IMG/VR virus record: IMGVR_UViG_2531839531_000009
Origin: a virus
Lineage: Duplodnaviria; Heunggongvirae; Uroviricota; Caudoviricetes
Strand: one strand, 5' to 3'
DNA length: 55,409 nucleotides
The notes under the pieces are model-generated. The model did not search any database, was not told the origin of the DNA, and worked only from the letters and a program-made list of their open reading frames with translations. Positions within the stretch are counted from its first letter, which is position 1, and every line of letters begins with the position of its first letter. Of the stretch, positions 1 through 9,727 are shown piece by piece. The position numbers were made by a program, and so were the translations under genes.

Positions 1-70
1 TCACAAAAACGTAACCACACTGCCAATAGCCAGAGAAATATAATTTTTTTTGCGATTTTTTAGAACTGAC

Positions 71-130
71 ACAACGTGAAACAACGAGACACCACGACGA
101 ACAACGGCGAACAATCTGGAACAAACTTGA
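71..130. repeat. six direct repeats phased at 10 bp (AC[A/C]A-initiated decamers) upstream of alpA
   Basis: Read directly: acaacgtgaa / acaacgagac / accacgacga / acaacggcga / acaatctgga / acaaacttga in consecutive decamers. Confidence 0.5.
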
Positions 131-410
131 TTAACATCTGACTGACACCCTAAAAAGTTGATTTTCAGTCGTTTTACTGGCTTTTTGTACATTGGCGAAT
201 CACTCTTAAAAACATGTAAAAAAGGCGTAAAAACAGAATTTTATGCCTTTGCACCACAATGAATTAAAAGAGTTTTTATTCTCATTACCACACTTCTGTA
301 AAATGACCGCCGCCAGTGTTTGCCATTCCATAAACACCCTGACACAATCCGACGCACCACAACACAATAGGACACCAAATAACTCTTTAAGAAATATCAA
401 AGGGGGAATT

Positions 411-599
411 GTGTTAAGCACAGATCGCTTTATACGTGAAAAAGAATGTCAGCAACTTACAGGCTTGAGCCGTTCATGTCGGTACCGCCTGGAAAAAACC
501 GGACAATTCCCATCACGGCGTAAGCTCGGCGGTCGTTCCGTTGGCTGGTCTTTATCCGAAGTTCTGGCATGGAAGGAAAGCTGCGAGGCAGTTCACTAA
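411..599 (+). CDS. alpA: AlpA-family HTH transcriptional regulator
   Basis: GTG start inside ORF 243..599; ...LSTDRFIREKECQQLTGLSRSCRYRLEKTGQFPSRRKLGGRSVGWSLSEVLAWK resembles AlpA-type regulators of P4-like and PICI elements. Confidence 0.7.
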   Translation: MLSTDRFIREKECQQLTGLSRSCRYRLEKTGQFPSRRKLGGRSVGWSLSEVLAWKESCEAVH

Positions 600-651
600 T
601 CAGGCTGGCGGCACACAGCCGCCACCCATCCACTAATACAGAGATCTAACC

Positions 652-1842
652 ATGAATACTGGATATTCTCCCGAACAAGGGCGGGGCTTCGTTCGTCCTG
701 AAAAACAGAATCTGCAAAATTTTGCCGAAATTATTCCGGTTATTTCCGGCCTTACTGGCGGGAGTGAAACCAATATTGTTAACGCCAGAGCGTTGCAGAT
801 GTTTGATGATAAAAAGGGAGTAAATTTAACTTACACCCCTGACGGCAATCAGAATATGAGCATTATCTCTGAGTCAGGTTTCTACAAACTAATAAAAACA
901 AAAAGCGCCCCGTTGCCGGAGCGCCTTTGTGAACAATTAACCTACTGCGCAAAAAATGAATCTGAGCAGTGGGATTATATCAACCGTGTGGCGAAGCGCC
1001 ACAATTGCCGGATAACAGGCAAAACAAAGGCCACCCGCAACGGTGGCCCCTCGACACAAGCTACACGTTATCCCCAACGCATGAGCATCACCAACAATGC
1101 CACATTTGCGGCTGGTGGGCAATGTGATCAGTCAGATTTGGTTCGTTCCAAGGTTTGCAACGAGAGCTTTTTCCTGTGCTCTTTAAGGAATTTCTCAAGA
1201 GCAAAAGCACATGGCGCGAATCTTTCTGATTCATGCTCTATCTTTCTGCGCCGTCTTTTCCGTGCCGGTGATAATGTTTTGGTCAATTCTTTATCGGTCA
1301 TTGTGTTGTCCTGCATAGCAATGCGCCGTAATACCTTACACCACGGCGCTGATGGTGATTACTCTGGTTCTTTGGTCTTGCGACGCTGGAGTTCTTCGCG
1401 TGCAACGGTGACAAGCTGCCCGATTTCTTCCGCTGCTTTGATGCCGATTTGTTCGACCTTAGCCAGGGCATCCAGTGACGACACAAGGGGATTTTCTCCG
1501 CTGCCTTCTGCTTGGCGGCGGGCTATTTCTCCGCGCATGGCGGTTACGATAAATCCGGCATTGCTTTCGCCGTCCAGCTTAACGGATTCCATCCCTTGCA
1601 TAACATCTAGTGGGACTCTGACAGTTGTCAGTTGTGATTTTGCGTTTTTGTTAGCCGTTGCCATTTCTGAAACTCCTAATCATCGGTGTGTTTCAGTATA
1701 CACAAAAAAAGAAATACAAAAAGCCTTGACGTGTGTTTCATGCGCTCATAACATGAAACACACCAAAAGAATTGTTGAAATACAAAGAGCAACGCCCCGC
1801 AGTGCCGGAAACACATACGGGGCGTCTAACCACCAACGATAG
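652..1842 (+). CDS. hypothetical protein; 3' extent uncertain
   Basis: 396-codon open frame with no recognisable SD; the C-terminal third is low-complexity and overlaps a well-supported minus-strand gene at 1359..1664. Confidence 0.3.
   Translation: MNTGYSPEQGRGFVRPEKQNLQNFAEIIPVISGLTGGSETNIVNARALQMFDDKKGVNLTYTPDGNQNMSIISESGFYKLIKTKSAPLPERLCEQLTYCAKNESEQWDYINRVAKRHNCRITGKTKATRNGGPSTQATRYPQRMSITNNATFAAGGQCDQSDLVRSKVCNESFFLCSLRNFSRAKAHGANLSDSCSIFLRRLFRAGDNVLVNSLSVIVLSCIAMRRNTLHHGADGDYSGSLVLRRWSSSRATVTSCPISSAALMPICSTLARASSDDTRGFSPLPSAWRRAISPRMAVTINPALLSPSSLTDSIPCITSSGTLTVVSCDFAFLLAVAISETPNHRCVSVYTKKEIQKALTCVSCAHNMKHTKRIVEIQRATPRSAGNTYGASNHQR
1359..1664 (-). CDS. hypothetical small protein
   Basis: 101-aa ORF with protein-like, balanced composition; AGGAG about 9 nt upstream of the ATG on the minus strand. 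Confidence 0.45.
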   Translation of the reverse strand: MATANKNAKSQLTTVRVPLDVMQGMESVKLDGESNAGFIVTAMRGEIARRQAEGSGENPLVSSLDALAKVEQIGIKAAEEIGQLVTVAREELQRRKTKEPE

Positions 1843-1861
1843 CAAGATTATCGAGGCTGCT

Positions 1862-2068
1862 ATGAGAAATCATACCATACACCCGCAAGGGCGGGACTCG
1901 CACAACCTGAATAAATACATCTGGCGTTTTATCGCCCTGAGTACGGCACAACCGCGCGTGATTACCATTGAGGCCACCAGCGAACAGGAAGCCCGTCAGC
2001 AATCACCGGCTGGCTGCGTGATGGTATTCGCCGCCCGTATTCGTCAGGGGGTGCACCATGTGCAATAA
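1862..2068 (+). CDS. small protein, possibly Icd-like
   Basis: Internal ATG of ORF 1772..2068; ...NKYIWRFIALSTAQPRVITIEATSEQEARQQSPAGCVMVFAARIRQ resembles what I recall of Icd-like proteins of P4-type elements; weak. Confidence 0.3.
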   Translation: MRNHTIHPQGRDSHNLNKYIWRFIALSTAQPRVITIEATSEQEARQQSPAGCVMVFAARIRQGVHHVQ

Positions 2069-2282
2069 CACCCGTCCGGACGCAGCCGCCGAAGCAATCA
2101 AAACACTGATTGATATTTCTGTTATCGCGGACAGGGCGCATAAGCACGCTACCAGTGAAACAGAATATGCCGGGGCTTTCGTTCCTCATTCACTGGCTGT
2201 AATGCAACTTAGTGCTGATATGGCACTGAATGAGGCCAGCAAAATTATCATGGCTGATATGGAGGTGGTGAGCCATGAATAA
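2058..2282 (+). CDS. hypothetical protein
   Basis: ORF whose ATG follows a GGGGG run and overlaps the upstream stop; part of a tightly packed + strand operon. Confidence 0.35.
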   Translation: MCNNTRPDAAAEAIKTLIDISVIADRAHKHATSETEYAGAFVPHSLAVMQLSADMALNEASKIIMADMEVVSHE

Positions 2283-2487
2283 TAATGAAGCGCACTTATC
2301 TGTAGTGCTGAATGTGCCGTCAGATTATACGGGGCGCGTACTGGTGTATCTGGAAAAAGGCCGGGTTAAATGCCAGTGCCGTTTAATGGAAAACGAATTT
2401 ATCAGCACTCTTGCGGGATTTTCTGAAATGCTCACTAAATCGGGTGTTAGTGCAGACCAGTTACGCGGGGGCGATTATGCGAAATAA
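2275..2487 (+). CDS. hypothetical protein
   Basis: ORF with GGAGG-like SD (ggaggtggtgagccATG); translationally coupled to neighbours. Confidence 0.35.
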   Translation: MNNNEAHLSVVLNVPSDYTGRVLVYLEKGRVKCQCRLMENEFISTLAGFSEMLTKSGVSADQLRGGDYAK

Positions 2488-2695
2488 ACATGATATTGAA
2501 GACCTGGCATTTGAAGCCCTGCACTCTGCGAAAAAAATCAGGGAAGTCGTCAATATGTGGATGAACAGCCTTAGCACCGATGAATCCGATAGCAGAGAGG
2601 AAATTCTTATTTCTTTGTTGTTAGACCTGGCAAATACACAGGTTTCTCTGACATCTGATATTGAACTCGCCGCTAAAAATCTGCCTCTGGAGTAA
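2477..2695 (+). CDS. hypothetical protein
   Basis: Internal ATG of ORF 2411..2695 preceded by GGGGG (gcgggggcgattATG). Confidence 0.35.
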   Translation: MRNKHDIEDLAFEALHSAKKIREVVNMWMNSLSTDESDSREEILISLLLDLANTQVSLTSDIELAAKNLPLE

Positions 2696-2701
2696 AAAAA
2701 C

Positions 2702-3001
2702 ATGAAACAGAAAAATTCTGGCTTTACTGCCAGTGGTCTCCCTCGGCCTGAAATCCGCCCCGGCGATATTTTCCGGGATAACTACGGTGGCACGGTAACG
2801 ATTAAAAGCGTGGCGGGGCGGTGCGTTACTTACCGCCGTGATGGGTACGGCTATGACTGCGTGATGCCTGCTTATCAGTTCCGGCGTGATTTTTCACTGA
2901 TACAGGCCACACCACGCAAACAGCCCACCAGCAACGCAAAGGCACGGGCAAATATTCAGAAAATGAAAAACATGATTAACGCATTCAGGGGCAAAAAATG
3001 A
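2702..3001 (+). CDS. hypothetical protein
   Basis: 99-aa ORF; its stop overlaps the ATG of the replication gene (ATGA). Confidence 0.4.
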   Translation: MKQKNSGFTASGLPRPEIRPGDIFRDNYGGTVTIKSVAGRCVTYRRDGYGYDCVMPAYQFRRDFSLIQATPRKQPTSNAKARANIQKMKNMINAFRGKK

Positions 3002-4413
3002 AACTGGCACCGAACTTAAAAAAACAGCCACACGACAAAATGACCGAAGTCATTATTTTTGCGGGTAGTGATGCCTGGGCGCACGCGAAACAGTGGCAGG
3101 AACAGGACGGGCGACTTGCTGGTGATAACGTCCCGCCTGTATGGCTGGGAGACAGCCAGCTTGACGAACTGGCAGACCTGAAAATTATCGACGATGGTCG
3201 CTATTGTGTCCGGCTGTACAAGGCAGGCCACATCAAGCCGTCAAATATTAATGCTATCGGGCAAAAGCTGGCGGCGGCAGGTGTACGGGATGCGAATTAT
3301 TACCCTGATGGAATGCACAGCCAGAAGCTGGAGAACTGGCACGACTACCTGCAACGGATCCGCGAACAGGCAGAGCGCGGGGAAATACTTACTGACGAGC
3401 AATACAGCCAGCGAAAAACCACGCTACCAATGAGCATTGGATCTGCAGGGTACGACACACAGCTTGATTATGTCGTTAAGGGCGTGATTCCGGCTAATTC
3501 ATTGTGCAGCACATACGGCGCGAGCGGTTCCTATAAATCGTTCCTCGCGTGTTCCTGGGCGTGTCATGTTGCCACTGGCCGTCACTGGGGAGGCCGCAGG
3601 GTGGCGCATGGTTCGGTGATGTATGTTGTCGGTGAAGGTGGCATTGGTGTCCCCCGCCGTATCAAGGCATGGGAAATCGTTAATGATGAACGGGTGGAAA
3701 ATCTGTACCTGGTAAACCGCCCGATTTTTCCGGCAGTCCCGCTTGATGTTGATGAAATGGTCATCGCTTCCCGCCAGGTTGAACGGGAAACGGGTAAACC
3801 GGTACGCATGATTATTCTTGATACGCTGGCGCGTTGCTTTGGCGGTAATGATGAAAATGACGCGCGGGATATGGGGGCGTTTATCCGTGGATGTGACGAA
3901 CTGAAACGCCGCACAGGGGCCACGGTGCTGGTGGTTCACCATTCCGGCAAGGATGAAACAAAGGGGGCGCGTGGTTCCAGTGCATTTCGTGCATCTCTGG
4001 ACGCTGAATACCGTATTCGCCGTGAAGGTGCAGACAGTGAAGCCCTGGTTATCTCCTGCACAAAAATGAAGGACGCGGAGGAACTGAAAGAGGCCGCATA
4101 CGATTTACGTGTGGTGGAGCTTTTTACCGACACTGACGGGGAGTTAATCACGTCGCTGGTTGTTGTGGATAAGCCGCGCCCACCCGTTGAACTGGAGCGC
4201 ATCGAGGAAGCCGGGAACAAGACGGAGAATCATGCCGCGCTATGGGGCTGTATCCGTTCACGCACACAGCGCGGAGATAAATGCACTATTCCGTTGTTGC
4301 GCGATGATATGAAAAAGCTGGGGTATGAGATGAAACACTTCCGGCGCTGGCTGTACAAGCTGGAAGGTGATGGCGTTATTGCTATTGACGGTGATGACGT
4401 GCGCCCACTGTAA
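2998..4413 (+). CDS. replication protein with RecA-like (RepA/DnaB-type) ATPase domain
   Basis: 471 aa; Walker A-like YGASGSYKS and Walker B-like RMIILDTLAR...VLVVHHSGKD; resembles primase-helicase/Rep proteins of satellites and genomic islands. Confidence 0.75.
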   Translation: MKLAPNLKKQPHDKMTEVIIFAGSDAWAHAKQWQEQDGRLAGDNVPPVWLGDSQLDELADLKIIDDGRYCVRLYKAGHIKPSNINAIGQKLAAAGVRDANYYPDGMHSQKLENWHDYLQRIREQAERGEILTDEQYSQRKTTLPMSIGSAGYDTQLDYVVKGVIPANSLCSTYGASGSYKSFLACSWACHVATGRHWGGRRVAHGSVMYVVGEGGIGVPRRIKAWEIVNDERVENLYLVNRPIFPAVPLDVDEMVIASRQVERETGKPVRMIILDTLARCFGGNDENDARDMGAFIRGCDELKRRTGATVLVVHHSGKDETKGARGSSAFRASLDAEYRIRREGADSEALVISCTKMKDAEELKEAAYDLRVVELFTDTDGELITSLVVVDKPRPPVELERIEEAGNKTENHAALWGCIRSRTQRGDKCTIPLLRDDMKKLGYEMKHFRRWLYKLEGDGVIAIDGDDVRPL

Positions 4414-4614: not shown

Positions 4615-4866
4615 ATGACCAGAAAAACCAGAGATAAGACAGCGCCAAAATATAAAGCGTTAGACATGACAGAGCACGCCTTAAAGGTGGCAATCAGAAC
4701 GATAGACCGCCACGCTGGGGAAGGATACGCGAAAGCACACCCCGAACTGATAAGCGCATTCATGACCACGACGGCGGCAAACTTTGCCACGCTGACAGAA
4801 CGGGAGATTGCCGAAGCGGAACAGGTGACAACCATCAACATTAAAACTGGAGAGCAGACAGCATGA
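4615..4866 (+). CDS. hypothetical protein
   Basis: 83-aa ORF starting just after the iterons; stop overlaps the next start. Confidence 0.4.
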   Translation: MTRKTRDKTAPKYKALDMTEHALKVAIRTIDRHAGEGYAKAHPELISAFMTTTAANFATLTEREIAEAEQVTTINIKTGEQTA

Positions 4867-8430: not shown

Positions 8431-9163
8431 AAAAAAGACGGTATTTAAATCGGGTGGTGTTTAATACCCCCAGGGGGATAGAAATCCCTACACCTCATTG
8501 CTTATGGGACCGCCCGCCTACCCTTGTTCACATCGCCACAGGTTCGAAAACTTTTTTTGGGAAGGTGTGCACGGGATTGATAGATGAGGTCTATCTATAA
8601 AAAATCACAAAATCCGCGCCATTGCTGGATCCGCCAAAAATCCCCCACCTTACGGCAGACAAAGAAAACGCGAATTATGGGCCTGTTGCAGAGAAAAAAG
8701 GTCTCACTAGTTTTGCGCACCCTAGCATCGAGGTTCGTCAGCCTCCCATCAGCAACCAGATAACTAATCTCGCTGGTGGGCATGATGCCGATATGGGGAC
8801 TTCCATAACGGTTTATCCGTGATCATCCACCAGCTTCATGGCGGATAGCCGGAAAATGATAACGGTATAGCCCGTCGCTTGTGTCTATTTGTTCCGCATT
8901 GTTGCATACAGTGCACCGAACGGTGTAGTTAATGGTGTAGTTAATTTGCGATTTTTAACGTTATTTGCAGCGATGTTTGTTGGTTAAATTCAATAAGTTA
9001 TGCGCATTTAATTATAAATATCGTGAATGAATAATCATGCATAAGCATTTTGCTTAAAATATCGGCAATATTTGGAACTTATTACTGGAATTTTGGGTAA
9101 TACGTTGTTGGACCGACCCGGTCTGGTTATCATATCGCGCTCTTAATTGCGGGAGGATGTAAC

Positions 9164-9727
9164 ATGAACCTTGACGACAAATCGCTGTTTCTTGACGCCA
9201 TGGAAGATGTCCAGCCGCTGAAACGTGCTACCGATGTCCACTGGCATCCAACGCGTAACCAACGTGCGCCGCAGCGTATCGACACGCTGCAGCTTGATAA
9301 TTTCCTCACCACCGGATTTCTCGACATCATCCCACTAAGTCAGCCGCTGGAGTTTCGGCGGGAAGGGTTGCAACATGGGGTGCTGGATAAGCTGCGCAGT
9401 GGTAAATATCCGCAACAGGCGAGCCTGAATCTTTTGCGCCAGCCGGTGGAAGAGTGCCGCAAAATGATGTTCAGTTTCATTCAACAAGCCATGGCTGATG
9501 GTTTGCGTAACGTGCTGATTATTCATGGCAAAGGACGGGATGATAAATCGCATGCCAATATTGTCCGCAGCTATGTGGCGCGCTGGCTGACCGAATTTGA
9601 TGATGTTCAGGCATATTGCACTGCGCTACCGCATCATGGCGGCAGCGGGGCGTGTTACGTCGCACTACGTAAAACGGCGCAGGCGAAGCAAGAAAACTGG
9701 GAGCGCCACGCTAAGCGCAGTCGTTGA
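9164..9727 (+). CDS. smrA: Smr-domain endonuclease SmrA (YdaL)
   Basis: 187-aa ORF with the Smr-domain motif LIIHGKGRDD...VRSYVARWL; position upstream of dgcM as in K-12. Confidence 0.85.
   Translation: MNLDDKSLFLDAMEDVQPLKRATDVHWHPTRNQRAPQRIDTLQLDNFLTTGFLDIIPLSQPLEFRREGLQHGVLDKLRSGKYPQQASLNLLRQPVEECRKMMFSFIQQAMADGLRNVLIIHGKGRDDKSHANIVRSYVARWLTEFDDVQAYCTALPHHGGSGACYVALRKTAQAKQENWERHAKRSR

Follow-up and report, generated by a model that had tools for sequence, protein, structure and literature searches.

We describe an array of six head-to-tail 10-bp repeats in the spacer between the integrase gene (int) and alpA of a phage-inducible chromosomal island (PICI). The array is probably an operator to which AlpA, the recombination directionality factor (RDF) and activator encoded by the island itself, binds cooperatively. 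AlpA is the master switch of Gram-negative PICIs, and the array supplies candidate operators for it at base resolution. Because such arrays are also found in the reference island EcCICFT073 and lie within reporters that have already been used, both the switch and the excision complex are directly testable. The results furthermore separate the probable excisionase sites (the ACAA arrays) from the probable integrase arm sites (a doubled GGTGTAGT motif).

The phased array and its host island

The window, by which we mean the whole stretch of DNA analysed (55,409 bp), opens with 700 bases that are 99.9% identical to many E. coli chromosomes. By its gene content the host element is a Gram-negative PICI of about 10.7 kb. 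It shows the PICI layout of int, alpA, a Bro/Icd zone, primase/helicase and capsid/terS genes, with flanking att sites and a size in the range of about 10-15 kb. The integrase carries an Arm-DNA-bind_3 domain (PF13356, E = 2.8e-18) and a Phage_integrase domain. In NC_017652.1 the genes past alpA encode Icd-like proteins, a RepA-family helicase, SSB, a major capsid protein, a decoration protein and a small terminase. A 396-aa ORF that follows alpA at 652-1842 is not annotated by RefSeq, and its 3' part overlaps a minus-strand YlcI/YnfO-family gene (1359-1664). Since relatives have antA/Bro-N genes or pseudogenes at that position, this ORF is probably a decayed Bro-zone gene. The features between int and alpA are the following.

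1-43, plus strand: 3' end of the PICI tyrosine integrase gene; the int coding sequence of NC_017652.1 ends at window position 43 (stop TAA, 41-43)
68-127, plus strand: distal array of six head-to-tail 10-bp units, GACACAACGT GAAACAACGA GACACCACGA CGAACAACGG CGAACAATCT GGAACAAACT
221-250, no strand assigned: A-tract, stem-loop and T-tract between the distal array and the alpA promoter, conserved in the alignment and similar to a bidirectional terminator
320-348, plus strand: candidate alpA promoter from a promoter scan, with -35 TTGCCA (320-325), a 17-bp spacer, -10 CACAAT (343-348) and TG before the -10
341-380, plus strand: proximal, weaker phased array, GACACAATCC GACGCACCAC AACACAATAG GACACCAAAT, overlapping the candidate -10 and the predicted transcript start
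411-599, plus strand: alpA, 62 aa, GTG start; Pfam Phage_AlpA (PF05930), E = 2.7e-18

The original prediction was that six decamers in a row start with AC(A/C)A and keep exactly to a 10-bp period, about 280 bp upstream of alpA. The sequence itself, Tandem Repeats Finder (period-10 arrays at 68-106 and 80-114) and simulations all bear this out. In that register the array runs over 71-130 as ACAACGTGAA ACAACGAGAC ACCACGACGA ACAACGGCGA ACAATCTGGA ACAAACTTGA, with ACAA in five of the six decamers, and its end at 130 lies 280 bp before the alpA GTG at 411. A better register is 68-127, which gives the unit consensus G-n-a-ACAA-y. A second run of six phased AC(A/C)A decamers occurs on neither strand of the window, the next longest being three. 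In simulated windows (first-order Markov) the longest run was two in 282 of 300 and three in the other 18. Runs of at least three phased ACAA are expected 0.003 times per window, compared with two observed, namely the distal array and a second one at the right end of the island.

The distal array lies within a 367-bp non-coding spacer from int to alpA and begins about 25-28 bp past the int stop. It had been suggested that the array would lose its meaning if it were coding in a longer upstream gene, but int stops at position 43. A protein-coding origin was rejected for the spacer as a whole, with no CDS annotated between int and alpA in 14 RefSeq genomes, and a 63-aa minus-strand ORF at 1-192 is ruled out as a gene since homologues differ by 10- and 21-bp indels that would disrupt it. 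We also rejected replication-origin iterons. The array is located 2.9 kb upstream of the RepA-helicase gene (2998-4413) and not beside an initiator, and in EcCICFT073 the PICI ori is downstream of pri-rep (PMC6092414). An Rfam search of positions 1-3000 gave no match.

For the investigation of conservation we collected 82 int-alpA spacers (64 distinct sequences) from complete E. coli genomes, Shigella and IMG/VR proviruses. The set spans at least five integration sites, and some of its spacers are less than 70% identical to that of the window. Two types of island are represented in it, namely classical PICIs and others that form capsids and have genes for portal, protease and large terminase. 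The distal array is found in all 82. Loss of the periodicity in related islands had been named as a reason to abandon the prediction, and we see the opposite: all 25 distinct versions are in strict 10-bp register, with five units in 12 of them, six in another 12 and three in the remaining one. Across 43 distinct units the A-C-A-A positions hold 2.0, 1.7, 1.8 and 1.8 bits of information, while in the flanks G(-3) reaches 1.0 bit, A(-1) 0.65 and Y(+4) 0.4, with lower values at the other positions. The mean pairwise difference is 0.02 in core columns, compared with 0.18 in the other columns of five-unit arrays (Fisher p = 0.014) and 0.34 in those of six-unit arrays (p = 1.4e-7), and over 24 distinct arrays the bases between cores are about ten times more variable than the ACAA cores. 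Copy number shifts by whole 10-bp units alone, as for example between the L006 and L010 loci. Whole-unit changes together with a constraint limited to the core indicate that selection acts on a short core which recurs along a single helix face. The reading of the array as a regulator array, bound cooperatively on one DNA face, thus stands, while the other reading offered with it, integrase arm-type sites, fares worse, as discussed below.

The motif on the att arms and at the candidate alpA promoter

It had been proposed to look for the same array at the other island end or near an integrase gene, and the phased motif is present in both places, in the latter case in related loci. When the window is scanned with a position weight matrix derived from the units, phased pairs or triples turn up at two places alone, the distal array and positions 8876-8905 on the minus strand. 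The features at this right end of the island are as follows.

8876-8905, minus strand: right-arm (attR, P arm) array of three phased units, reading CTTGTgtcta TTTGTtccgc ATTGTtgcat on the plus strand
8921-8946, plus strand: doubled 12-bp motif CGGTGTAGTTAAT GGTGTAGTTAATT (CGGTGTAGTTAATGGTGTAGTTAATT), putative arm-type sites for the integrase on the P arm
9017-9026, no strand assigned: attR crossover or identity block AATATCGTGA, also present in the attL junction of L005, whose island is likewise integrated at abgR-smrA

The window's copy of the island ends near 9026 and is followed by host smrA. The doubled motif (two copies of GGTGTAGTnnnn or of GGTGTAGTTAAT, short form GGTGTAGT) starts 15 bp past the right-arm units. 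An identical 26-mer is found in the L001 locus at 4767-4792, 22 bp upstream of the int ATG, and before it, on the left arm, stand four phased units, CTTGTtccaa CTTGTtccac GTTGTacccc CTTGTgcaat. This left-arm module, with four units 5 bp from the doubled GGTGTAGT motif, is found in all 14 E. coli loci inspected (L001-L014) and in CFT073. The right-arm module is found in each of the five right ends inspected, those of the window and of four other islands.

In an attP reconstructed with window 9017-9026 and L005 388-396 as the core, the ACAA units occupy -142, -132 and -122 on one side of the core centre and +90 to +120 on the other. The doubled motif lies at -99/-87 and +133/+145 and the int ATG at +180. 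The GenBank record of P4 annotates attP arm repeats in which a 12-mer is doubled in tandem on either arm, and one such pair (TTGGGGGCATAA TTGGGGGCATCT) closely precedes the int start. The P4 integrase belongs to the same arm-domain family as the island Int. By this analogy the doubled 12-bp motif probably represents the arm-type sites of Int. Since Int already has its own candidate sites in this P4-like motif, the ACAA arrays are left for a second protein.

Some islands carry a variant of the doubled motif, GGTGTAGTCACT, and the two arms are not always matched. An attempt to tie the doubled motif to integrase type through its TAAT and CACT variants was given up, as the left arm of L002 has CACT but its right arm TAAT. 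The L001 island (NC_017652.1, about 248000-260000, strain clone D i14), which is nearly identical to that of the window (99.9% over the first 700 bp), is located within an IS110-family transposase gene of a CP4-like island, while the window's copy is at abgR-smrA. The junctions of the two have a similar short core (TCGCTGTGA compared with ATCGTGA), which suggests secondary-site integration.

The motif is also found at the candidate alpA promoter. This site at 320-348 is the only conserved sigma-70-like promoter in the int-alpA spacer. Its TTGCCA is invariant, and the 17-bp spacing to (C/A)ACAAT is kept in 14 of 14 loci despite a 10-bp indel. The proximal array over its -10, which the original prediction does not mention, is weaker, with the unit at 341 alone scoring above 9 bits in the window with the array matrix, and among relatives it has gained a whole 10-bp unit in L004 and lost one in L013. 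Going by these motif matches, four arrays occur per island: on the P' arm, in the distal spacer, at the proximal promoter and on the P arm.

The hairpin at 221-250, situated between distal array and promoter, folds as plus-strand RNA with -12.9 kcal/mol (z = -4.0, single-sequence fold), and its stem leads into T6 when read on the minus strand. A T-to-C change in L002 and L005 converts a G-U pair of this hairpin to G-C. Possible functions of the hairpin are to shield alpA from transcription running through from int, or to halt antisense transcription.

AlpA and other candidate binders

The original prediction mentioned AlpA merely as a reagent for footprinting, next to integrase. We consider AlpA the better candidate binder of the two. 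According to its AF2 model (pLDDT 88), AlpA is a winged-helix excisionase-like protein. The best structural match of the model is the GIsul2 excisionase 8C3T (TM 0.84, 38% identity), a PDB entry which also matches AlpA by sequence, and the next structural matches are RdfS, Pukovnik Xis, TorI and BldC. Proteins of this kind attach head-to-tail to direct repeats spaced by one turn, at att sites and promoters alike, as reported for 186 Apl (PMC7498355) and P2 Cox (PMC3936717). RDF-type operators are marked by at least three co-oriented direct repeats one helical turn apart, and here five or six are found in 24 of the 25 distinct arrays. Their short degenerate core is constrained while the flanks are free, in our case apart from G(-3). 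The same motif stands on the att arms adjoining candidate integrase arm-type sites, and the element encodes a small winged-helix excisionase-type protein, here AlpA. At the level of sequence the array therefore has every feature of the Cox, Apl, TorI and Xis operator class, with AlpA as its putative binder.

Published experiments on EcCICFT073 are consistent with this assignment. EcCICFT073, which is integrated between roxA and phoQ in CFT073, has the same int-alpA module with a perfect six-unit spacer array. Its integrase and AlpA are identical to those of L004, and its AlpA differs from that of the window in two residues. In this island AlpA supplied in trans activates a PalpA-lacZ fusion (PMC6092414). 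By primer mapping the insert of this fusion (pJP2038 type) corresponds to window positions 11-469, so that both spacer arrays are inside. AlpA overexpression leads to int-dependent excision with no rise in Pint (PMC6092414), which fits a direct architectural role of AlpA at att. In the searchable open-access literature we found no defined AlpA site in PICIs, no description of these repeats and no definition of the element by which alpA is induced by helper phages.

We suggest the following way in which the operator could work. Each AlpA monomer would read one ACAA(Y) core in the major groove, and six monomers would line up head-to-tail, one per turn on one face of the helix, as a short nucleoprotein filament. 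At both att arms AlpA would use the same motif beside the integrase arm-type sites to direct excision, with the arrays on the two arms shaping the excisive complex. Through the motif in the int-alpA spacer AlpA would also control its own promoter. The six-unit distal array, the strongest cluster in the island, might be a high-avidity nucleation site that is filled first, which would make autoactivation by AlpA cooperative and switch-like. Its role at the alpA promoter could be that of an upstream site for activation or nucleation, or it could act as a buffer and so define the threshold at which positive feedback sets in. The weaker proximal units over the -10 would then fine-tune or cap alpA expression.

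Several observations count against an AlpA operator. Pint-lacZ in EcCICFT073 is unchanged by AlpA (PMC6092414), and the Pint reporter fragment of Fillol-Salom et al. appears to include the P' arm array, although its primers map only approximately, with several mismatches or indels. About 190-250 bp separate the distal array from the candidate -35 downstream of it, and the terminator-like hairpin stands in between, a long way for a simple activator site. A promoter scan and manual inspection found no sigma-70-like promoter directly downstream of the distal array, leaving a simple class I or class II activator geometry unsupported. The proximal units overlap the -10, a position from which repression would normally be predicted, in contrast to the published activation. 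Furthermore, for RDFs an array on one att arm is more usual than on both.

The array might instead be the target of a helper-phage protein, for example the helper's Xis/Cox-type excisionase, which would switch on alpA while AlpA acts elsewhere or additionally. Lambda and phi80 induce alpA promoter fragments of this region in EcCICFT073 (PMC6092414), and Kapi1 induces the alpA promoter fragment of EcCIMP1, partly even in a delta-alpA mutant. There is a precedent in P2 Cox, which activates P4 PLL via at least six cox boxes with 10-11-bp spacing upstream of the promoter (PMC3936717). P4 also has three tandem 10-bp repeats with a TTAAAG cox-box core about 150 bp upstream of vis, and cross-talk between PICI and helper excisionases is on record (PMC11773190). 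The X1 site of lambda Xis, AACACAACAT (L124, 27633-27642, minus strand), scores 6.2 bits with the array matrix, a weak lead that amounts to one weak match. On the other hand, the motif is found at the island's own att arms beside arm-type sites, which points to the island's own directionality factor. AlpA alone, with no helper, activates the fragment and causes excision (PMC6092414), and the same island family is induced by helpers with unrelated excisionases. We therefore consider a helper protein an unlikely owner of the array.

The two readings could also be combined. The array could be an "ignition" site at which the helper's Xis/Cox-type excisionase, produced when the prophage is induced, cross-binds and fires alpA, after which AlpA takes over these sites for positive feedback and excision. 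If true, this cross-recognition of excisionases would be the long-sought induction signal of Gram-negative PICIs and a parallel to P2 Cox on P4 PLL, but we find such a two-step arrangement quite improbable.

Another reading is that the repeats are extra arm-type sites for the N-terminal domain of Int, used in int autoregulation or in a larger intasome. The Arm-DNA-bind_3 domain of Int and the presence of the motif on both att arms, as required of arm-type sites, agree with this, and the lambda sites P'1-P'3 are likewise tandem repeats about one turn apart. The KplE1 integrase autoregulates through its arm sites (PMC2951348). However, the distal array is about 1.4 kb from the crossover in the attL core, past the whole int gene, whereas arm sites would be expected within about 150-200 bp. 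In the island the distinct doubled 12-bp motif fills exactly those positions at which Int arm repeats are annotated in P4, and this holds also for the pair that precedes the int start codon. A core of 4-5 bp with free flanks is typical of excisionase sites and not of 10-12-bp arm sites, and the response of the spacer fragment to AlpA would be left unexplained. For these reasons there is little likelihood that the repeats are integrase arm-type sites. The arrangement of the helper-embedded PICI 11capE (NRG857c), in which alpA abuts int without a spacer and without ACAA arrays, does not discriminate between AlpA and Int.

It is very improbable that the array has no dedicated protein partner and is a DNA bend, a spacer or a decaying duplicate of an att arm kept by linkage alone: its purine-rich phased units could confer some intrinsic curvature, and an 11-mer, TTGCGATTTTT, that is found both next to the right-arm doubled motif and to the left of the distal array hints at an origin by duplication, but a decaying duplicate would not show the constraint seen in the core, gains and losses of units never break the register, and the motif is kept where the spacer is otherwise less than 70% identical.

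Known operators and more distant relatives

The AlpA operator proposed here has its closest parallels in the sites of small excisionases that also act as regulators. P2 Cox, a small winged-helix excisionase and regulator, binds at least six short direct repeats with 10-11-bp spacing at Pc, at attP and upstream of P4 PLL (PMC3936717). Like the cox boxes, the island arrays are found both at att and at a promoter and stand upstream of a satellite gene of the vis/alpA type, P4 vis being an AlpA homologue driven by PLL. The Cox array mediates activation. The differences are that the cox box reads TTAAAGNCA compared with G-n-a-ACAAy in the island, and that the orientation of cox boxes varies within targets whereas all units of the island array are co-oriented. 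In addition, the binder at PLL is the helper's protein, with binding demonstrated, whereas we favour the island's own AlpA as the predicted binder of the array. In P4 (L123) positions 9176-9205 hold three tandem 10-bp "ori type 2 repeats", CTTTAAGTGG in vis orientation, which mirror the position of the PICI array upstream of alpA.

The Apl protein of phage 186 is similar to the proposed AlpA in being one protein with the functions of excisionase and regulator, and its direct repeats, which are of similar sequence, are likewise one turn apart at att and in the promoter region. It has seven sites at pR-pL in addition to those at att and binds head-to-tail (PMC7498355). Its specificity per site is weak and its cooperativity strong, so that at least three adjacent sites are needed (PMC7498355). 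Apl represses two face-to-face promoters and its sites lie between them, whereas AlpA is reported as an activator of its own promoter and in the island some 200 bp separate the array from the candidate promoter downstream.

For TorI, attL contains five sites whose cores are pentamers (GTTCG, GATCG and GTCCG), three of them at a 10-bp period, beside Int arm-type sites and overlapping the int promoter (PMC2951348). Proteins of the TorI and lambda Xis type bind head-to-tail as a microfilament (cited in PMC7498355), and the AlpA model resembles these folds. The TorI sites at KplE1 attL and the lambda Xis sites X1-X1.5-X2 are known at att alone, while the island adds the longer arrays of the int-alpA spacer and has the motif on both arms. 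Helper-embedded PICIs (HE-PICIs) have a doubled TGTATTGC motif in attP at -81/+132 (PMC10111431). The doubled 12-bp motif of the island is at about -88 and +145 from the core, and P4 has its doubled repeats on both arms. These doubled motifs of HE-PICIs and P4 correspond to the neighbours of the ACAA arrays and not to the arrays themselves.

In the array-bearing islands AlpA is nearly identical throughout and the integrases are closely related, while the diverged AlpA relatives examined have different architectures. Scans of GTDB genomes and IMG/VR with an AlpA alignment gave, on the one hand, PICI modules that are near-identical and without exception contain ACAA arrays and, on the other, relatives of about 65% identity in a different setting. 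The latter (L017-L034 and L111-L122, from other Enterobacterales) belong to a different element type that has no int upstream. Here a conserved hairpin, GCCCTCGAAC-n5-CGAACGAGGGC with a T-run, abuts the start codon of the alpA-like gene. It includes two CGAAC repeats 10 bp apart and would sequester a GAGGG ribosome-binding site. Among the PICI spacers, L006-L014 and L016 carry a perfect 16-bp palindrome, CAGTATGCGCATACTG, about 18-33 bp past the int stop, between a T-run and the array. This palindrome is absent from the window's type and could be the site of a dimeric protein.
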